Below, piece by piece: positions 3,740 to 54,057 of a stretch of DNA of 64,000 nt; position 1 is the stretch's first letter, and every line of letters starts with the position of its first letter. The notes below the pieces were generated by a model. That model saw nothing but the letters and a program-made list of their open reading frames with translations, was not told where the DNA came from and made no database searches. Where the stretch lies: positions 341,015-405,014 of the forward strand of contig CAWDSG010000002.1 of assembly GCA_963804975.1 (NCBI GenBank), in the 5' to 3' direction. The position numbers and the translations under genes were made by a program. Source of the DNA: an uncultured bacterium (GTDB taxonomy: Bacteria; Patescibacteriota; Minisyncoccia; Phycocordibacterales; GWA1-40-21).

Positions 3740-4012
3740 CTAAATAACATTCACAATACTTCTCCTTGTTATTGTTGAATCAAAATTATTTTTTCTTTTT
3801 GTCTTGAATTCCACTGTTCCGTCCGCAAGAGCAAAAAGCGTGTGGTCTGTGCCAACGCCAACAGATTTGCCGGCGAGTACGTCTCTGCCTTTTTGCCTCA
3901 CGATGATTTGTCCGGTTTTTACGGCTTCGCCGTTATTGATTTTCACCCCAAGATATCTTGAATTGGAATCTCTGCCGTTTTTACTTGAACCTGCTGCTTT
4001 TTTATGTGCCAT
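3740..4012 (-). CDS. rpmA: 50S ribosomal protein L27
   Basis: '[24 protein letters not shown]...' typical bL27 N-terminus; 90 aa. Confidence 0.9.
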
Positions 4013-4078
4013 AGTTGATTTTTATCTTTATAATTAATGCCTATGATTCTAACTAATCTCAAGAAAAAAGTCAATCTA

Positions 4079-4107
4079 TTGAAAGAAAAGCTAAAAACCT
4101 ATATAAT
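4079..4107 (+). promoter_or_regulatory. sigma70-like promoter for the large surface-protein gene
   Basis: TTGAAA (4079-4084), 17-nt spacer, TATAAT (4102-4107); about 25 nt upstream of ATG 4130. Confidence 0.5.
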
Positions 4108-4129
4108 CAACGTCATATAAATATAAAAA

Positions 4130-6853
4130 ATGTTAAGCTACCTTGAAAAAAGACAAAATATGATGAATAAAAATTACAAGATATTTGTTTTTCTATTATC
4201 GGTTGTTGGAGGCCTTCTGGCTTTCGGCCAATGTGTTTTTGCTTCTTCCGACGGATATGGATATTTTCGCCCTATAACGATAGATCACACAGAAGTTTCC
4301 ACAAATGATCAAGCATCTTTTCCTATTCTAGTTTGTTTCAACGGAAATTCTCCATGTGACCAATCTTTGCCGGAACTTAAAAATACATCAGATGGAGGGC
4401 ATGTCCAAAATTCAAACGGCTACGATATTATTTTTACTTCCGATATTGACGGCAACAATGTTCTTCCTTTTGAATTGGAAAATTATGTTCCGACTACGGG
4501 CGAAGCTGAGTTTTGGATAAATATACCTACATTGTCCCATTCAACTGACACGACTATTTACATGTTTTACGGAAAATCCGGTGTAAGTAGTTTCCAGGGA
4601 AATACAACGGGAACATGGAATAGCGATTACAAAGGAGTTTATCATCTTTCCACGCCGTCAGTTATTTATGTAAGGCCGACTAGGAGCAGCTATAATCCGA
4701 TAATCAGTCACGGAGGAACAGGATGGAAAGAGCGCCAAGTTCAGGAACCGGTTATTATTCCTGATCCGACTGATAATTCAAAACTTATAATGTTTTATGC
4801 TGCTATGGACGGTTCAAACGATACTGCTATTGGGTTTGCAACTTCAACTGTAGCAAATCCTGAAAGTTGGAATGAGTACAGTGGCAACCCAGTTATTCCG
4901 GGAGAAGGTGTCGGACGGCGAATAGATGCGGTTATAAATGTATCGGGTACGCTTTATCTTTATGCTACTGAAAACAGTGTTCAGGTTGTTTTATACACCT
5001 CTACTGATAACGGACTTACTTGGTCTAGAGATGCTTCAAGTCCCGTTTTAACTCCGGACGGCCAAGAATGTTCAGACGAAACTAATGTCAGTGAAGGTAG
5101 TGTTTACTGGGATGGCGGAAGCAATTGGACAATGATTTACTCTTATCGCACAAACGCAGCTTCTTTAGCGGGATTTCGATATGCAACATCTTCTGATGGA
5201 AAAACTTGGACGAAAGGCGGGTGCACAGACATTCTTTCTTTAGGGCCTGCCGGTACAAGTGATACGTCATATATGGAATGGCATCAGATTTTTAAAATAG
5301 GCTCCACTTACTATTTAAGCTATGAAGGTTATGGCTATAATTCTGAAGGAGTAGTTTGGTCAGCCAATCTTGCTTACAGCAAAAGCTTAACAAGCGGCTG
5401 GAAAAAAGCTGGAGCTAATCCGGTTTTTATACGATCATCAACTCCCGGAGCTTTTGATGAATACCATGTGGCAACGCCAGCTTTTTATAATATCGGCGGA
5501 GTGTGGTATTTATTTTATCAGGGAGGAAACGTCTACGACCCTTATGCCGCTTCAAATTGGGATTTGGGTATGGCTCGTTTGCCTGGAAGTCCGGCAGATG
5601 CCGCTATTGGCGAAGTTCATGATTCTACTTCCAATGCAAATGATTTAGTTGCAGTAAATTTAGCAACTTCTTCAGGAGAATTTGGCAGAGGATTTGTTTT
5701 TAACGGCACTTCAAGTTATGCAAGTTCTCCGATTCCCGGATCTACGGCAACAAGCAATTTTACTTTGCAATCATGGATAAAACCTAACGATTTGGATACG
5801 CCGTTTACGTTCGTACAAAATGGAGCTGATAACGGAATAGATGGAGGTTCCGGTTATGGAATCGGCCTTAATGGCAGTGCCGGAGGAGGGGGAAGGCTTA
5901 CAGCTCTTTTATCTGGAATAACTTGGCTTGATTCGGGTTCTGCATTTGTTTCCACAAGCAGTTGGCACAGCACGGCAATGGTAAGAGATGCAGGTGGCAC
6001 TATTGATTTTTATGCTGATGCGGTTCAGGCCCCTCTTACGTATTCTCAAACACCGAATGCAGCGAATACAAATTTTACAATCGGATCCCTTACAACCGGG
6101 CATGGTTTTTATAACGGATCGGTAGATGAGGTACGTATTTTAGACACTGCGCTTGGAGCAGATTGGATTGCAACTGAATACAATAACGAAAATTCTCCAT
6201 CGACTTTTTATACAGTAGGAGACGAAACCGCTTTAACGACGACTTCAAGAGGTCATCATAGGAATCTTGAGTATCTTTTGTATACAGCCGGATTCGGTGG
6301 CACGATTTCAGGAGAAAAAAGTCAGGTTGTAGTTTCTGGGGGAAGCGGTTCACTTGTCACGGCTGTTCCTGATCCTGGCTATAAATTTACAACCTGGAGC
6401 GATGGCCTAAAAACAGATTCAAGAACCGATGAAAACATATTAGCAAGTGTCAGCTTCACTGCGAATTTTGAACCTTTGTTAACTTCGTCAAATGAAAGTG
6501 AAGCTGAAACTGCTGTTTCTTCGGGAGCATCAAATACCGGCACAGGTGGCGGATTTTATGTTTCGACCTCCTCTGAAATGATAGGTTCGGGCTCCTCCAC
6601 CACTTCAAAGTTTATTTTTAATCGCGATCTTTATTTTACAAAAACAGAATCAGATGTTAAAGAGCTTCAAAAATATTTGAATAATAATGGTTTTATTCTT
6701 GCAAAAACCGGTCCTGGTTCTCCGGGGCAAGAAACTTCTTATTTCGGAATATTGACAAAAAACAGTTTAATTGGCTTCCAAAAAGCAAATAAAATTAAAC
6801 CGACAATCGGGTATTTCGGTCCCATTACAAGAAAGTTAATCAACAGTCGTTAA
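4130..6853 (+). CDS. large secreted/cell-surface multidomain protein (DUF2341-like N-domain, Asp-box beta-propeller, LamG/ConA-like lectin domain, InlB-B-like repeat, C-terminal peptidoglycan-binding domain)
   Basis: Signal peptide after Met at 4160 ('MMNKNYKIFVFLLSVVGGLLAFG'); 'GYGYFRPITIDHTEV...FPILVCF' DUF2341-type start; two Asp-box motifs 'STDNGLTWS' and 'SSDGKTWTK'; LamG-like 'NGSVDEVRILDTAL'; C-terminal PG_binding_1-like 'VKELQKYLNNNGF...GPGSPGQETSYFGILT'. Confidence 0.7.
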   Translation: MLSYLEKRQNMMNKNYKIFVFLLSVVGGLLAFGQCVFASSDGYGYFRPITIDHTEVSTNDQASFPILVCFNGNSPCDQSLPELKNTSDGGHVQNSNGYDIIFTSDIDGNNVLPFELENYVPTTGEAEFWINIPTLSHSTDTTIYMFYGKSGVSSFQGNTTGTWNSDYKGVYHLSTPSVIYVRPTRSSYNPIISHGGTGWKERQVQEPVIIPDPTDNSKLIMFYAAMDGSNDTAIGFATSTVANPESWNEYSGNPVIPGEGVGRRIDAVINVSGTLYLYATENSVQVVLYTSTDNGLTWSRDASSPVLTPDGQECSDETNVSEGSVYWDGGSNWTMIYSYRTNAASLAGFRYATSSDGKTWTKGGCTDILSLGPAGTSDTSYMEWHQIFKIGSTYYLSYEGYGYNSEGVVWSANLAYSKSLTSGWKKAGANPVFIRSSTPGAFDEYHVATPAFYNIGGVWYLFYQGGNVYDPYAASNWDLGMARLPGSPADAAIGEVHDSTSNANDLVAVNLATSSGEFGRGFVFNGTSSYASSPIPGSTATSNFTLQSWIKPNDLDTPFTFVQNGADNGIDGGSGYGIGLNGSAGGGGRLTALLSGITWLDSGSAFVSTSSWHSTAMVRDAGGTIDFYADAVQAPLTYSQTPNAANTNFTIGSLTTGHGFYNGSVDEVRILDTALGADWIATEYNNENSPSTFYTVGDETALTTTSRGHHRNLEYLLYTAGFGGTISGEKSQVVVSGGSGSLVTAVPDPGYKFTTWSDGLKTDSRTDENILASVSFTANFEPLLTSSNESEAETAVSSGASNTGTGGGFYVSTSSEMIGSGSSTTSKFIFNRDLYFTKTESDVKELQKYLNNNGFILAKTGPGSPGQETSYFGILTKNSLIGFQKANKIKPTIGYFGPITRKLINSR

Positions 6854-7321: not shown

Positions 7322-7390
7322 CGAATTTGACATATCTTTTAGTTTTGATAATCTCAAAATAGGAAGTTCGTTCAAAAAAGAGGTGTGTTT

Positions 7391-7615
7391 ATGATCAAAA
7401 AGAAACAGCTCAAAAGTAAAACTATACCATTCAGAGAAGCACATAAAATAATCGGGTGGATGGTCAGATATTGCTTAAAAATCAAAAAAAGATTACAAGA
7501 CTTAAATGATGCGGAAATAGTATTTATTATTTGCTGTGTTTTGAGCGGCCAGGAAAAATGGATATTGGATGATAGGCTAGTGTTTGGAAAATGGACAAAA
7601 AAACGCAAAAAGTAA
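7391..7615 (+). CDS. small hypothetical protein (74 aa, basic)
   Basis: RBS aaaaagagg 8 nt upstream of ATG 7391; followed by a clean rho-independent terminator. Confidence 0.4.
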   Translation: MIKKKQLKSKTIPFREAHKIIGWMVRYCLKIKKRLQDLNDAEIVFIICCVLSGQEKWILDDRLVFGKWTKKRKK

Positions 7616-7633
7616 GGTGATTTACCCGATACG

Positions 7634-7667
7634 AACGGAGAAAGATTTTTTCTCCGTTCATTTTTTT
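7634..7667 (+). terminator. rho-independent terminator
   Basis: aacggaga / tctccgtt stem with 9-nt loop, followed by T7 run. Confidence 0.7.
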
Positions 7668-7746
7668 AAATCTAAAACCAAGTTGACTTTTTTCCTTATA
7701 ATGGTAGATTTTGTATCAGAAGAATTCCAAAAAATGGAGGCAAGAA

Positions 7747-7938
7747 ATGTACTTAGAATTCAATTGCAGAAATGAGAGTTGTGATAATGGAGTTGAAATG
7801 CCTGGCACCTATTGTGAATCTTGTCGTTCACTACCTAAAAAGATAAAATTATTCGCGGTAGCGATTACACTGCTTTTTATAGTGATACCGTTTATTTTTG
7901 TGGTTTATAAAATTTTTTCGATTCCAATCGGTTTTTAA
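7747..7938 (+). CDS. small zinc-ribbon membrane protein (63 aa)
   Basis: RBS ggagg then ATG 7747; 'C-x4-C ... C-x2-C' (FNCRNESCDNGVEMPGTYCESC) followed by one TM helix 'LFAVAITLLFIVIPFIFVVYKIF'. Confidence 0.45.
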   Translation: MYLEFNCRNESCDNGVEMPGTYCESCRSLPKKIKLFAVAITLLFIVIPFIFVVYKIFSIPIGF

Positions 7939-7949
7939 GGGGAGAAATC

Positions 7950-8072
7950 ATGAAAAAACTAAGATTGTTCTTTGTTTTGTTTATTAAAATACTTTTTCCA
8001 AAAAAGCCGAACAAGAAACAAATTAAGGTTTTGAATGAAACAAATATCAACTCCGGTACTACTACCGGTTAA
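7950..8072 (+). CDS. tiny ORF (40 aa) with RBS and terminator
   Basis: ggggag RBS before ATG 7950; terminator immediately downstream (8072-8102). Confidence 0.3.
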   Translation: MKKLRLFFVLFIKILFPKKPNKKQIKVLNETNINSGTTTG

Positions 8073-8102
8073 AACACAGCAAGTAATACGCTGTGTTTTT
8101 TG
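8072..8102 (+). terminator. rho-independent terminator
   Basis: aaacacagc / gctgtgttt stem, T-run. Confidence 0.7.
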
Positions 8103-8169
8103 TTGCCAATCTTATTTTTTGTGCTAGGATAAAAATAGATTCTTATTGTTATTTTAAATGGGGGATTAC

Positions 8170-8376
8170 ATGATCAAACATTTATTTATTTCTGGGAAAG
8201 CAATAGAAACTTTGCGATTAACTCCGCGTGATTTAAAAAAAGCAATGCGATTAAGGAAAAATGAAATAGCACGAGAACGTTATCAAGAAAAACGTAAGAA
8301 ACGTTTAAGGAAAACTCGCGTTAATCTTGTAGCTATTCGTGGGCAGATGGACTGCCCAAGACATAATGATTTTTGA
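8170..8376 (+). CDS. small basic hypothetical protein (68 aa)
   Basis: ATG 8170 after gggggattac; Lys/Arg-rich 'RERYQEKRKKRLRKTR'; own terminator. Confidence 0.4.
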   Translation: MIKHLFISGKAIETLRLTPRDLKKAMRLRKNEIARERYQEKRKKRLRKTRVNLVAIRGQMDCPRHNDF

Positions 8377-45682: not shown

Positions 45683-45753
45683 CTGCGGGGCTTGGAATCG
45701 AACCAAGATACCAGCCTCCAAAGGGCCGTGTCCTACCGTTAGACGATCCCGCA
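45683..45753 (-). tRNA. tRNA-Gln (anticodon UUG)
   Basis: Reverse complement UGCGGGAUC GUCU-AACGGUA-GGAC A CGGCC-CUUUGGA-GGCUG GUAU CUUGG-UUCGAUU-CCAAG CCCCGCA G folds as cloverleaf; U1-A72 and G73 typical of tRNA-Gln; one A-C mismatch at 7-66; CCA not encoded. Confidence 0.8.
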
Positions 45754-45912: not shown

Positions 45913-46167
45913 ATGGCAAATAAAAATTCTGCGTTTATGAAGCCTTTGAATGTAAGTGCTGACCTTGCCAAGGTAGTCGGCGCCGGCCCGATGCCGAGAT
46001 CCGAAGTCGTAAAAAAGCTTTGGGTTTATATCAAAGGAAAGAATCTTCAGGATCCGAAGAATAAGAGAAATATAAACGCCGATGCAAATTTGAAAGCGGT
46101 TTTTGGAGGCAAGGCGGTGGTCAATATGTTTGAAATGACCAAGCTCGTCTCAAAGCACTTATCATAA
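45913..46167 (+). CDS. SWIB/MDM2-domain protein
   Basis: 'MPRSEVVKKLWVYIKGKNLQDPKNKRNINADANLKAVFGGKAVVNMFEMTKLVSKHL' matches the SWIB/MDM2 pattern closely; 84 aa. Confidence 0.8.
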   Translation: MANKNSAFMKPLNVSADLAKVVGAGPMPRSEVVKKLWVYIKGKNLQDPKNKRNINADANLKAVFGGKAVVNMFEMTKLVSKHLS

Positions 46168-48805: not shown

Positions 48806-49369
48806 ATGGCGCCGACAAAGATTAAAAAAAATCAAATAGTGCAGAAAAACAGTCCTGTTTTGAGGGAGATTTCTTTGCCTGTACCGCAAGATAAAATCGG
48901 AAGTCCGGAAATAAAGGCGATTATTTCGGATATGAAAAAATCTATTGAATCTCAAGCTGATGCAGTTGCCATATCGGCAGTGCAGATCGGCAAACCGGTA
49001 AGGATTTTTGTTATTTCAAAGAAGGTTTTTGGAATCGCAAGCGGTGATGTGACCAAAGCGTCCGCAAAAGATGACCTGGTTTTTATAAATCCCAAAATCA
49101 TCAAAACATCAAAAAACAAAAAATCTTTGGAGGAAGGATGCCTTTCCGTCAGATATTTTTATGGAAATGTCCTGCGCGCAGAAAAAGCTACGGTACAGGC
49201 GTTTGATGAGCATGGCAGAAAATTTACCAGGGGTTTTTCCGGCCTTTTCGCGCAGATAGTCCAGCATGAAACGGACCACTTAGACGGGAAGCTTTTTATA
49301 GATAAGGCCAAAAATATTCAGGAAATTTCTCATGAGGAATACGAGAAAAGTTTGGCAATCCATGAATGA
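48806..49369 (+). CDS. def: peptide deformylase
   Basis: 'EEGCLSV' motif 2 and 'QHETDHLDG' motif 3; 187 aa. Confidence 0.9.
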   Translation: MAPTKIKKNQIVQKNSPVLREISLPVPQDKIGSPEIKAIISDMKKSIESQADAVAISAVQIGKPVRIFVISKKVFGIASGDVTKASAKDDLVFINPKIIKTSKNKKSLEEGCLSVRYFYGNVLRAEKATVQAFDEHGRKFTRGFSGLFAQIVQHETDHLDGKLFIDKAKNIQEISHEEYEKSLAIHE

Positions 49370-49440
49370 TTGACAAATGCTTTTTTATCCTGTAATTTTA
49401 ATAATAGAAAAGATCATCTAAAAATTGGAGGCGGATAAAA

Positions 49441-49806
49441 ATGAAAAAGGAAGAAACAAAAAGCATCAAATACGTTTTTTGTGGTTATTCAAAAACGGGT
49501 CGTGAGCTTATTGAAACGGCAATAAAAAAAGTTGCCGAAACGGAAAATTTACTGGTTTTGTTTGACGAAGATCCGTATTACAAAATAGGCAGATCGCCCC
49601 GCGTAATAGTAAAAACAAAAAATGATGATGATTTTGTTTGGGCGATTTATATACTAAGATTGGTGGTGAAAGATAAGTTAAAGGAAAATATTACCGCCAT
49701 CAAGATTTCCAGGGATCCGAAAAAGGAAAGAAGTCAAATTGTTTATATCACACCCAACAGCATTCCGAAAAAGCCCCAGGTTCCTCAAAAAGCGCCTGCA
49801 ATCTAG
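49441..49806 (+). CDS. hypothetical protein, paralog 1 of a small two-gene insert in the def-fmt operon
   Basis: 121 aa; GGAGG RBS; shares pattern with next ORF. Confidence 0.5.
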   Translation: MKKEETKSIKYVFCGYSKTGRELIETAIKKVAETENLLVLFDEDPYYKIGRSPRVIVKTKNDDDFVWAIYILRLVVKDKLKENITAIKISRDPKKERSQIVYITPNSIPKKPQVPQKAPAI

Positions 49807-49887
49807 GCGCTTTTTTAATTGACAAATCTTAAAAATTTTATAGCATAGGAAGTAGAGGTATTTAAATAAATTCCAGGGAGGTTTGAA

Positions 49888-50202
49888 ATGTTTAATATTG
49901 AATTCATTGGGTTTAACAAAAAAGAACGGGAAATTATTGCGAGGTGGATCTCGAGTATTAAAGGAGAAGTAAGAGCACACCATATTAATCCCAATCCGAG
50001 ATATTTTGGAAATCAAATATCTTTTCACCGAGGACTATCAATCGAAAAAAGAGAAGGGGAAGTCAATTCTTTTGTTCGGGTTACTTATCTAAACAAAAAC
50101 GATTTGATCTATGTAAAGTTTCTTCTCAAGGAAGTTAAAAGGAGAGCGGCAATAGCACTCAATCCTGAATATTACAAACTTGATATGGGAACGAACCATT
50201 AA
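49888..50202 (+). CDS. hypothetical protein, paralog 2
   Basis: 104 aa; GGGAGG RBS; distant similarity to previous ORF. Confidence 0.5.
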   Translation: MFNIEFIGFNKKEREIIARWISSIKGEVRAHHINPNPRYFGNQISFHRGLSIEKREGEVNSFVRVTYLNKNDLIYVKFLLKEVKRRAAIALNPEYYKLDMGTNH

Positions 50203-50231
50203 TTTTTTCGGATAAGCAAGTTGAAAAATAA

Positions 50232-50264
50232 GCGCCTGACCTGCGGGTCGGGTGCTTTTCTTTT
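50232..50264 (+). terminator. rho-independent terminator (imperfect stem)
   Basis: gcgcctgacc / ggtcgggtgc then ttttctttt. Confidence 0.5.
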
Positions 50265-50294
50265 GGAAGATTATCTCGTAATATTAGAGTTATT

Positions 50295-51227
50295 ATGTTT
50301 AATAAAAATATAAAAACGGCTTTCTTTGGCAATTCGGAATTTTCTCTGATTGTACTTCTCGAGCTTAAAAAACTCGGTTTTTTGCCTGATATTGTAGTTA
50401 CCACTCCCGACAAGCCGGTTGGCAGAAAAATGATTCTTACGCCGACACAGACGAAGGTTTGGGCGCAGGACAATTCAATAGAATATATTGAACCGGTAAA
50501 ACTGAAAGATGAAAGTTTTCTAGAAAAGATGAAAGAATACAATCTTTTTATCGTTGCTTCCTACGGGAAAATAATCCCGAAAGCACTTATTGATATTCCT
50601 AAATATAAAGCGCTTAATATTCATCCTTCGCTTCTGCCGAAATATCGCGGTCCATCGCCCTTGCAGGAGCAGATTTTAAATAATGAGAAAAATGTCGGTG
50701 TTTCAATAATGCTTATAGACGAACAAATGGATCACGGGGCGATTTTGGCACAAAAAAAAGTGGACCTACCTGACCGGCAGGCAGGAATCCCTTCTTGGCC
50801 CGTTGGTTTTAATGAATTGTCTGAAATTCTAGGAAAAGAAGGTGCTAAGTTGTTGATGAAAATTTTACCGGAATGGATAAAAGGCAAGATCAAGCCGAAG
50901 GAACAAAATCACAGCGAAGCGACTTTTACAAAAAAAGTTGAAAAGCAGGACGGACTAATAATCTGTCCCGATGTCTCACATCAGGAAAATGTTGATAAAA
51001 ACCCCGAGGTTAAACCTCGGGGAAACGAAACATATAAAGATTATTTGAAATATTTGGCCTATGAAGATTGGCCGGGAACATATTTTGAAGCTACGCACAA
51101 TGGTAAAAAATTGAAAGTTATCGTTAAAAAAGCTGTTTGGAAAGATGATGAACTTGAAATTCTCCGCGTTGTTCCGGAAGGTAAAAAAGAGATGGATTAT
51201 AAGGACTTTTTGCGAGGCTTAAGATAA
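50295..51227 (+). CDS. fmt: methionyl-tRNA formyltransferase
   Basis: 'HPSLLPKYRGPSPLQ' SLLP motif; 310 aa. Contains an in-frame copy of the CCCCGAGG palindromic unit at 50991-51022. Confidence 0.9.
   Translation: MFNKNIKTAFFGNSEFSLIVLLELKKLGFLPDIVVTTPDKPVGRKMILTPTQTKVWAQDNSIEYIEPVKLKDESFLEKMKEYNLFIVASYGKIIPKALIDIPKYKALNIHPSLLPKYRGPSPLQEQILNNEKNVGVSIMLIDEQMDHGAILAQKKVDLPDRQAGIPSWPVGFNELSEILGKEGAKLLMKILPEWIKGKIKPKEQNHSEATFTKKVEKQDGLIICPDVSHQENVDKNPEVKPRGNETYKDYLKYLAYEDWPGTYFEATHNGKKLKVIVKKAVWKDDELEILRVVPEGKKEMDYKDFLRGLR
50991..51022. repeat. GC-rich palindromic unit, copy P2, embedded in-frame in fmt
   Basis: gttgataaaaaCCCCGAGGttaaaCCTCGGGG identical over 31/32 nt to P1; no T-run. Confidence 0.8.
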
Positions 51228-52255: not shown

Positions 52256-52327
52256 TCCGGAGTAGCTCAGCGGTAGAGCGATCGCCTGTTAAGCGATTGG
52301 TCGCAGGTTCGATCCCTGCCTCCGGAG
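52256..52327 (+). tRNA. tRNA-Asn (anticodon GUU)
   Basis: UCCGGAG UA GCUC-AGCGGUA-GAGC G AUCGC-CUGUUAA-GCGAU UGGUC GCAGG-UUCGAUC-CCUGC CUCCGGA G; perfect 7-bp acceptor stem, U33, A37; CCA not encoded. Confidence 0.85.
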
Positions 52328-52401
52328 CAAAAGCTAGTACTTGACAAATAGGATATAATTATTATCATATTTACAGAGGTACAAAATCTTAAAAAGGGGG
52401 T

Positions 52402-52725
52402 TTGAAAATGAAACAATTTTCATTAATAGTGATGCTGTTTGTTATGATGATTGCGACTTACTCTGTAGCGGATGCCAACACGAGTGGAGTCGAACACATA
52501 CGTCTCTTTTCTAAAACCGCAGGAGGGACACAAAAATCAGTTGCAATGGCAACGGAAAAACTGAACAATGAAATTGATCAGTGGCTTAATAACAATCCGA
52601 CTTTAAAAATAATCGGGGTTGAATTCGAAAATACAAGCACTGGGAATCTACCTAACGGTGGACTTGGTAACAACACAGTATTTGTAACTATCACCGTCGT
52701 TGTACATTGCATATCAAAAAAATAA
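52402..52725 (+). CDS. small secreted hypothetical protein
   Basis: 107 aa with signal peptide; RBS aaaggggg. Confidence 0.45.
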   Translation: MKMKQFSLIVMLFVMMIATYSVADANTSGVEHIRLFSKTAGGTQKSVAMATEKLNNEIDQWLNNNPTLKIIGVEFENTSTGNLPNGGLGNNTVFVTITVVVHCISKK

Positions 52726-52747
52726 CGAATACATCCGTTGGTACATA

Positions 52748-52779
52748 ATATCCAGTCTAAAACGACTGGATATTTTTTT
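52748..52779 (+). terminator. rho-independent terminator
   Basis: atatccagtc / gactggatat 10-bp stem then T7. Confidence 0.8.
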
Positions 52780-52825
52780 GTCCCAAACAGGTTCTGACTT
52801 CCTCCGGCCAGTGAAGCCGCCTTAG

Positions 52826-52851
52826 CCACCTTTTAATTGAGGTGGTTTTTT
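52826..52851 (+). terminator. second tandem rho-independent terminator
   Basis: ccacc / ggtgg stem with 10-nt loop then T6. Confidence 0.5.
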
Positions 52852-53150
52852 GGTTGATTAAAATTTTTGGAAGTGATAAACTGATATAATAATTAAATAA
52901 ATATAAAAATATGTAGTAAGAGGAAATTTTATTGGTGCGGCGATTGTTGCAATAATCTACACGGTTTATATTTTAATGAATCCCCTTCCAACAAAATGGC
53001 AAACGGCGTTAGTATTGGTGATTCTTAACGCTTTAACTATCGTGCTTTTGTCTTTTGCATTCAAAATGTAAAAGAGAAATAATAATTTGACTTATAATTT
53101 TATCGTGGTAATTTTATATTGAAAGAACCTTGTAAAGAAAGGAACTCAAA

Positions 53151-53495
53151 ATGCGTAAAGACAGAGCGAGAGCAGAGCGAAATATAAAAAATTTAATAAA
53201 AAAAGTAGTTGGCAGCTTAGCCGGTAAAAGGAAGTTGCCGAGACAACCTATTATTAATGTCAGGCAGGAACTTGCAGATGGAATAAGTATTACGATTGAT
53301 TCGCAAAAAAATAGCGGTAAGCATCCAGGCATAACTTATAGTGTGATTATTGAAAACGAAATTCCTGGACGCAAATCACTATTAATCTCAAAATTTACTG
53401 AGTCCGAAATTTTAAGAGCCTTTCTGCTGGGGCTTTGGTCATTAGGAGTTGTGAATAATTGCAATGATATTTCATCTATTGAAATTCCTTCCTGA
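53151..53495 (+). CDS. hypothetical protein
   Basis: 114 aa; basic N-terminus; terminator downstream. Confidence 0.4.
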   Translation: MRKDRARAERNIKNLIKKVVGSLAGKRKLPRQPIINVRQELADGISITIDSQKNSGKHPGITYSVIIENEIPGRKSLLISKFTESEILRAFLLGLWSLGVVNNCNDISSIEIPS

Positions 53496-53520
53496 ACAAA
53501 AGAATAATTTTATAAAAATT

Positions 53521-53550
53521 AACCCCGGTGTTTAGTCGCCGGGGTTTTTA
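53521..53550 (+). terminator. rho-independent terminator
   Basis: aaccccgg / ccggggtt stem then ttttta. Confidence 0.7.
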
Positions 53551-53713
53551 TTCAAATATTCGCTAAAAAAGCTTTATTTTATCCGCACGGATGCGTTATT
53601 TGTTATCAACAGGATTTTTGAATGCCTGTTTGACTATTTTTAAAAAGGATATAAAATTAACAAAGATATAGTCGATTATCATTATAATTATTAATTATAA
53701 AAAATATAAATAA

Positions 53714-53860
53714 TATGAAAGGTACGCTTATAACACTCGGAATCATTTTGCTAGTAATCGGATTGATTGGTCTTATTTCAAACACTTCAGTCGGTTTGAT
53801 GTGGGTACTTTTGATCCTCGGCGTAATCGGAGTAATCTGGGGCGCTTCAGTCAAAGGTAA
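53714..53860 (+). CDS. small membrane peptide (48 aa)
   Basis: ATG 53714; two Gly-zipper-like hydrophobic segments then basic tail 'GRNRSNLGRFSQR'; hand-translated. Confidence 0.3.
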   Translation, partial: YERYAYNTRNHFASNRIDWSYFKHFSRFDVGTFDPRRNRSNLGRFSQR

Positions 53861-53899
53861 GGCAACAATGTAAAAAAATTTAAATAACAAACAAAAAAT

Positions 53900-53927
53900 C
53901 ACCCGTGATGCGGGTGGTTTTTGTTTT
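53900..53927 (+). terminator. rho-independent terminator
   Basis: cacccg / cgggtg stem then gtttttgtttt. Confidence 0.6.
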
Positions 53928-54057
53928 ATATAATTCGGCAAAAACCGAAGATTATTCTTTTAACACTTGACAAATATATTTAATAGATATATACTTTTTT
54001 CAGTTTTTTGAACTGTTTTCCCGTTGATTTCCCTGCTTATTTTGCTAACATACATCT

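Follow-up and report, generated by a model that had tools for sequence, protein, structure and literature searches.

How do the two genes of a classic housekeeping pair, def and fmt, come to stand apart in a reduced genome, and what are the genes that separate them? This question is raised by a stretch of 64,000 nucleotides (the window hereafter; positions 341,015 to 405,014 of the 606-kb contig CAWDSG010000002.1 of assembly GCA_963804975.1, a sequence also assembled from run ERR10755942) from a small-genome bacterium of the Patescibacteria, or Candidate Phyla Radiation (CPR), in which a gap of 925 bp containing two small open reading frames (ORFs), ORF1 and ORF2, lies between the genes for peptide deformylase (def) and methionyl-tRNA formyltransferase (fmt). 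In genes, order and orientation, the locus resembles the canonical def-fmt operon of the E. coli type (Meinnel & Blanquet 1993 and Mazel et al. 1994, both cited via PMC12690207), whereas the interposed 925 bp with two genes and two strong terminators set it apart. On balance, ORF1 and ORF2 are probably genuine lineage-restricted orphans, which constitute a fast-evolving accessory unit in a variable slot between def and fmt that was opened in one clade of Patescibacteria.

The gene order around the insert is dus(-) / def(+) / fmt(+) / hpf(-) / yggU(-). The upstream flank, def (48806..49369, + strand), is identified by Pfam family PF01327 Pep_deformylase (E 9.3e-41), and the downstream flank, fmt (50295..51227, +), by PF00551 Formyl_trans_N (E 2.5e-29) together with the C-terminal domain. 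Between them, ORF calling and the in-frame codon score delineate ORF1 (49441..49806, +; 121 amino acids, aa) and ORF2 (49888..50202, +; 104 aa). Coordinates and flanks thereby agree with a first-pass annotation of the same DNA, which had described two ORFs of these lengths between def and fmt, each with a strong ribosome-binding site (RBS), and a terminator ahead of fmt. GGAGG-type sites can indeed be read in front of both ORFs, namely GGAGG at 49427..49431 (+), 9 nt before the ATG of ORF1, and GGGAGG at 49876..49881 (+), 6 nt before that of ORF2. Likewise, a terminator scan places an intrinsic terminator, T2 (50230..50266, +), between ORF2 and fmt, comprising a 12-bp stem (50230-50257) and a T-rich tail, the predicted RNA fold of which (dG -22.2 kcal/mol, z -5.08) is matched in stability by 0/200 shuffled sequences. 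A second intrinsic terminator, T1 (49787..49816, +), is absent from that annotation. It corresponds to inverted repeat I8 with a GCGCCT / AGGCGC core and a T6 run, ends ORF1 by overlapping its final codons and stop codon, and reaches a fold energy of -15.9 kcal/mol (z -5.08; again 0/200 shuffles equally stable).

Each of the two ORFs is thus followed by a terminator of its own, and the signals upstream of them can be compared in the same manner. For ORF2, the promoter scan predicts a sigma-70-type promoter, P2 (49819..49846, +), in which TTGACA and TAGCAT are spaced by 16 nt and 10/12 positions match. For ORF1, a candidate weak promoter at 49370..49398 (+) combines a perfect TTGACA -35 box, which starts straight after the def stop codon, with a 17-nt spacer and a poor -10 box, TAATTT; it is not among the promoters listed by the consensus promoter scan. 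The TTGACAAA box recurs upstream of other genes in the window and is a generic -35 element of this genome. Since the spacer between def and ORF1 is devoid of a terminator and its RNA is unstructured (fold z -0.65), read-through from def into ORF1 is possible. Transcription of ORF1 would probably use this read-through, its own weak promoter or the two together.

Judging from sequence features, both ORFs are very probably real genes. In the annotated frame, ORF1 reaches 0.264 and ORF2 0.177 on a log-odds scale of codon usage derived from the 35 long genes of the window, which themselves score 0.331 +/- 0.074, and the scores of the five other frames of each are all negative (-0.22 to -0.99). At a GC content of 39%, the calculated chance of a stop-free run is about 1e-3 per position for 104 codons and about 3e-4 for 121 codons. 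The GC content of the ORFs (0.34-0.37) is slightly below that of the flanks (0.38-0.40). Both encoded proteins are basic and soluble; the ORF1 protein (pI 9.6) lacks hydrophobic runs and carries a Pro/Lys-rich C-terminal tail, while the pI of the ORF2 protein is 9.9. Both are hydrophilic, with neither membrane segment nor signal peptide detected, and the products would be small, basic, soluble, cytoplasmic alpha/beta proteins. On the opposite strand, a 116-aa ORF with a GTG start (49678-50028, -) spans the ORF1/ORF2 junction including T1 and P2; since the codon scores of the minus strand are below zero across both ORF regions, it probably represents a shadow ORF.

Comparison of the def-fmt junction across relatives reveals where the insert occurs. 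The premise that def and fmt are normally adjacent, as the first-pass annotation had put it, is borne out by more distant Patescibacteria: in 15 of them the spacing ranges from about -30 to +11 bp, so that the genes abut or overlap, and in two others (L028 and L029) the Def and Fmt matches directly abut, amounting to 17 distant relatives with a tight junction. Exceptions among the distant relatives are L016, with 69 bp, and L006, with 356 bp. The insert is confined to the clade of the window, the members of which share dus-def...fmt-hpf synteny and resemble the window at 58-64% identity for Def, about 63-65% for Dus and, in L002 and L025, 65-67% for Fmt. The family in question includes CAWJAN010000001.1, Ga0116171_10034794, Ga0172381_10088649 and Ga0187884_10071737. 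Within this clade, the junction is 95 bp long and free of ORFs in L024, spans 1181 bp with three ORFs of 75, 112 and 128 aa in L002, at least 700 bp with a 124-aa ORF plus the beginning of a second in L027, and at least 240 bp with an ORF running off the contig in L023, while L025 features two ORFs of 108 and 91 aa in 850 bp. The insert ORFs of L002, L027 and L023 gained no support as relatives of ORF1 or ORF2 from tblastn, phmmer, hidden Markov models (HMMs) or hhalign, and no known family matched them either. Since the occupied L023 and the empty L024 are each other's closest relatives (73% Def identity), the content of the slot turns over within the clade.

Only in L025 is the same two-gene unit recognisable, which brings its occurrence to 2 of about 25 informative def-fmt loci. 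ORF2 and the 91-aa ORF of L025 (1876-2151) share 25% identity across their whole length, with a local p of about 4e-4 and a semi-global z of 6.06, a score reached by 0/3000 shuffles. The reading frame of ORF2 has therefore been maintained over a long term, given that similarity persists at such divergence. Between ORF1 and the 108-aa ORF of L025 (1470-1796), identity is 24% and the similarity marginal (p 0.01-0.08). Cross-type pairs between window and L025 remain at chance level (p 0.1-0.7). Moreover, gene order is alike, the spacer between the ORFs measures 81 bp in the window and 79 bp in L025, and the terminator/-35 junction GCTTTTTTAnTTGACAAA is common to both. On these sequence grounds the pair of L025 is the diverged counterpart of the window's unit, and from the shared pair, order, spacer and junction it follows that the two-gene unit predates the split of the two lineages. 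Its divergence, at about 25% identity, stands against 58-65% for the flanking genes of the same two genomes. Conservation of a def-X-X-fmt arrangement, proposed as a check in the first-pass annotation, is accordingly lacking in nearly all relatives, although a strongly diverged pair persists in L025; by the same token, the refuting case raised there, of ORFs that are absent from close relatives, hardly conserved and thus perhaps ORFans, largely came true, with the counterpart in L025 as the part that did not.

Several observations concern the occupants of the junction in other genomes. In L006, a distant Campbellbacteria relative, the 356-bp gap contains a 79-aa hydrophobic, membrane-like ORF (5682-5921, -), apparently a case in which the def|fmt junction was occupied independently. 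The 108-aa ORF of L025 displays marginal similarity to two ORFs of L002, namely the 128-aa ORF (5559-5945; semi-global p 0.014) and the 75-aa ORF (4877-5104; local p 0.013); although non-significant after multiple testing, these values hint that some slot occupants are possibly very remote relatives. The 95-bp spacer of L024 features four direct copies of ATTCGTA (1713-1750) just upstream of fmt, spaced by 11, 9 and 11 bp and thus by about one helical turn, which may represent an operator-like array. In L002, the closest relative, a 64-aa orphan ORF (3982-4176) occupies the dus|def junction (3921-4215), preceded by a TTGACAAAT box and the RBS AGGAGG and accompanied by a strong terminator, and hence promoter-ORF-terminator modules of this type are not restricted to def|fmt. 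In the window, only 59 bp separate dus and def.

The absence of any recognisable domain, stated in the first-pass annotation, withstood searches of both proteins at the level of sequence, profile, family and structure, none of which returned anything significant. A word-indexed search of a collection of 5.8 billion proteins retrieved ORF1 and ORF2 as self matches only, and a profile search with the concatenated alignment of window and L025 returned solely the window's own ORF1. In an exhaustive HMMER search with concatenated ORF1 and ORF2 as query against 1.84 billion representatives (2.4e11 residues), nothing was found apart from the query itself and two long tandem-repeat surface proteins, P0003 (1777 aa) and P0004 (624 aa). 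Both were rejected as artefacts, the scores being summed over seven and four near-identical repeats; the best single repeat attains 37.7 bits, for which about 100 chance occurrences are calculated in 2.4e11 residues, and one of the two proteins matches just the low-complexity Pro/Lys tail of ORF1. Furthermore, Pfam, PHROGs, NCBIfam and PADLOC yielded no significant match for either ORF, IMG/VR viral contigs and INPHARED phage genomes no significant similarity, and PDB sequences no significant match. At the RNA level, Rfam gave only sub-threshold matches of the insert to terminator-like 3' ends of small RNA models.

An origin of the insert from fmt itself was also considered and rejected. It had been suggested by the first 10 nt shared between ORF2 and fmt (ATGTTTAATA), by an N-terminal motif resembling 'IAFFGT' of Fmt and by a resemblance of 'HINPNPRYFG' to 'NIHPSLLPKYRG'. 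A clade Fmt HMM built from 21 sequences, however, scores all small ORFs at shuffle level, with -1.5 bits for ORF2 (19% of shuffles as good) and 1.9 bits for ORF1 (3.7%; not significant over nine tests). In addition, Formyl_trans_N has no match in the insert, and the 30-nt DNA repeat D1 is AT-rich and out of register.

Whether the two ORFs are functional and whether they are related to each other both bear on alternative explanations of the pair. It would be very improbable for them to be non-genic, or proto-genes that arose recently in intergenic DNA and have at most a slight function: apart from the unlikely length of the stop-free runs, they feature canonical, correctly spaced RBSs, terminators situated exactly at the ORF ends and a positive codon score in the annotated frame only, and the ORF2 counterpart in L025 keeps its protein similarity (z 6) despite flanks at about 60% identity. 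What this explanation can invoke is that both proteins are singletons throughout the protein libraries, that the codon score of ORF2 falls about 2 standard deviations below that of established genes and that slot content differs among relatives. With respect to relatedness, the first-pass annotation had perceived a distant pattern common to ORF1 and ORF2 and concluded on a tandem duplication. The peptides in question are present, but their similarity does not exceed that of shuffled sequences. BLASTP aligns 19 aa, 7 of them identical (E 0.019 when only this pair is compared), and with each of three gap settings, 3-8% of shuffles score as high in Smith-Waterman local alignment as the pair does. 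In a semi-global alignment, where two collinear motifs would raise the score, z is 0.68 and p 0.23, and hhalign, applied to two-sequence profiles of each type (either ORF with its diverged relative), returns a probability of 0.4% while aligning unrelated regions. Nor did the HMM of either type retrieve a member of the other among 3460 translated ORFs. Duplication thus finds no support in any of these comparisons. The idea that both are tandem paralogues, very far diverged, within a single fast-evolving family of small proteins can point to the common character of the proteins (about 100-120 aa, basic, of mixed alpha/beta type and beginning with a strand-Gly-helix element), to the N-terminal motif, aligned locally at p about 0.03-0.08, to a marginal mutual similarity of the two ORFs of L025 (p 0.02-0.2) and to the equally marginal pair formed by the 108-aa ORF of L025 and the 128-aa ORF of L002. 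We regard it as unlikely, given the negative alignments above, the chance-level cross-type pairs between the two genomes and the fact that no marginal p-value survives correction for the roughly 45 pairs tested. Single-sequence models by AlphaFold2, both of mixed alpha/beta type and unreliable at a predicted local distance difference test score (pLDDT) of 49.6 and 53.6, differ in the order of elements as well, b-a-b-a-b-b as opposed to b-a-b-b-a-b.

The location of the pair invites explanations in terms of function, of which an involvement in N-terminal methionine formylation or deformylation, or in translation initiation, had been put forward in the first-pass annotation. The proteins would then modulate peptide deformylase or Fmt, or bind near the ribosomal exit tunnel. 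This proposal gained no support and is very unlikely, because distribution is patchy and unrelated genes act as replacements: the pair is absent from the 17 distant relatives with abutting def and fmt, the slot is empty in the close relative L024, and unrelated orphan ORFs substitute in L002, L027 and L023. Terminators would cut the ORFs off from fmt, although none parts ORF1 from def, and an identity of about 25% to the sole counterpart is unexpected for partners of conserved enzymes. Location between def and fmt, on which the proposal chiefly draws, has to be set against the finding that, across bacteria, only 58% of species have the two genes co-localised (PMC12690207). The top Foldseek match of the ORF1 model, ribosomal protein uL23, would suit the proposal but is non-significant (E 0.06, TM 0.32) and derives from a model of pLDDT 50. 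The same unreliable fold match is the only hint for the last step of a broader notion, according to which def|fmt and neighbouring junctions such as dus|def serve, in one clade, as a nursery where small promoter-ORF-terminator modules originate or insert and then evolve extremely fast, and ORF1 and ORF2 are survivors that represent a new basic alpha/beta family whose target would be the adjacently encoded machinery for translation or nascent chains; we hold this to be highly improbable. The first-pass annotation had alternatively envisaged a small selfish two-gene cassette. A two-gene cassette fits the data better than a role in formylation, but nothing shows that it is selfish or mobile: no significant flanking repeats, no second copy in the window and no integrase or tRNA at the site were found, the nearest tRNAs (45683-45753 and 52256-52327) both lying outside the insert. 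A toxin-antitoxin-like, defence or otherwise selfish cassette is quite unlikely in our view. Two small genes standing together and in unchanged order in window and L025, their accessory distribution, rapid divergence and slightly reduced GC content are in keeping with it. In both genomes, however, a terminator and a separate promoter intervene between the genes, whereas type II toxin-antitoxin systems form one autoregulated operon; both proteins are basic, and no toxin, antitoxin or defence model of PADLOC, Pfam or NCBIfam matched.

Lineage-restricted orphan genes in a variable slot thus remain the reading which we favour, with some reservation. Because the pair diverges so rapidly in comparison with its flanks (about 25% as opposed to about 60% identity) and unrelated orphans replace one another at the junction, dispensable accessory functions are suggested. 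As a low-confidence guess, these might lie in genetic conflict, in host or partner interaction or in general nucleic-acid binding rather than in core translation. A number of points weigh against this reading. By sequence alone, the match of ORF1 to its counterpart in L025 is of no more than marginal significance, and only six genomes of the close clade are sampled, three of which reside on contigs cut inside the insert. In addition, the structure models of both proteins reach a pLDDT of only about 50, and Foldseek comparison of these models with the PDB yielded nothing significant. Finally, def and ORF1 may share a transcript, in which case a role linked to def would be conceivable.

What the insert would mean for the expression of its flanks can be considered irrespective of protein function. 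The two strong terminators between def and fmt imply that fmt would be uncoupled transcriptionally from def, and the two genes would no longer form one operon in this genome. Expression of fmt would then depend either on transcripts that pass the terminators or on a separate start with a short and probably almost absent leader. The regions upstream of fmt were inspected in four clade members (window, 50258-50297; L002, 5950-6003; L025, 2170-2223; L024, 1740-1772), and a GGAGG-type RBS is found in none of the four. Instead, -10-like boxes (TAATAT/TAGAGT, TATAAT, TATACT, TATAAA) are situated 5-10 nt before the fmt ATG. This arrangement suggests that the fmt mRNA in this clade may be leaderless or nearly so.

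Patescibacteria are rich in genes of the kind described here, with 54,343 lineage-specific unknown clusters reported, mostly at the species level (PMC9132574). ORF1 and ORF2 are a typical CPR orphan pair, interrupting def-fmt at a slot which sister lineages fill with other orphans. Like lineage-restricted CPR orphan genes in general, they are small, belong to a reduced CPR genome and cannot be annotated by Pfam or any other family resource; unlike these, they are tied to a defined housekeeping slot and possess one identified syntenic counterpart. The organisation of the unit also recalls phage morons, which are autonomous promoter-gene-terminator units inserted between conserved genes. ORF2 is such a self-contained promoter-RBS-ORF-terminator unit between co-oriented conserved genes, as is ORF1 in part, having T1 but only a -35 box, and both share with morons a presence in some relatives but not in others and a GC content slightly below that of the flanks. 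In contrast to morons, the pair is surrounded by housekeeping genes of the chromosome (dus, def, fmt and hpf), and PHROGs, IMG/VR and INPHARED offer no similarity. With type II toxin-antitoxin modules, the unit has in common adjacent small genes of about 100 aa each, co-inheritance and an accessory distribution, while the terminator and promoter that split ORF1 from ORF2, the lack of family homology and the basic nature of both proteins distinguish it. Another resemblance is that to chromosomal hotspots or 'islets', at which genes turn over between conserved core genes: the six clade loci feature the same core flanks (dus-def...fmt-hpf) with differing content, including the empty state, the difference being that the def|fmt slot is tiny (0.85-1.2 kb, 2-3 genes) and that no integrase, tRNA, repeats or further signs of mobility were found.

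If the favoured reading is true, the locus provides a small-scale example of orphan genes wedged into a classic housekeeping operon, the two genes of which they uncouple, in a reduced genome. Moreover, reuse of one slot by unrelated small genes would inform our picture of gene turnover and of the origin of the large 'unknown' fraction of Patescibacteria. The def-fmt insert does not open up a new mechanism, nor does it provide a handle on formylation biology.

Elsewhere in the window, an islet of small ORFs without Pfam match extends from 52341 to 53941, just past the tRNA at 52256-52327, and comprises 52402-52725, 53151-53495 and 53657-53941(-); the ORF at 52402-52725 is preceded by a TTGACAAA box and begins in a manner reminiscent of a signal peptide (MKMKQFSLIVMLFVMMIATYSVADA). 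At 7372-8376, three short ORFs of 78, 75 and 72 aa, which lack a Pfam match and have codon scores that are low or below zero, may represent another orphan islet or non-coding DNA. Lastly, the gene at 45913-46167 encodes an 84-aa protein that consists of little beyond a SWIB/MDM2 domain (Pfam E 1.4e-30), a domain familiar chiefly from chromatin remodellers of eukaryotes and from a restricted range of bacteria.

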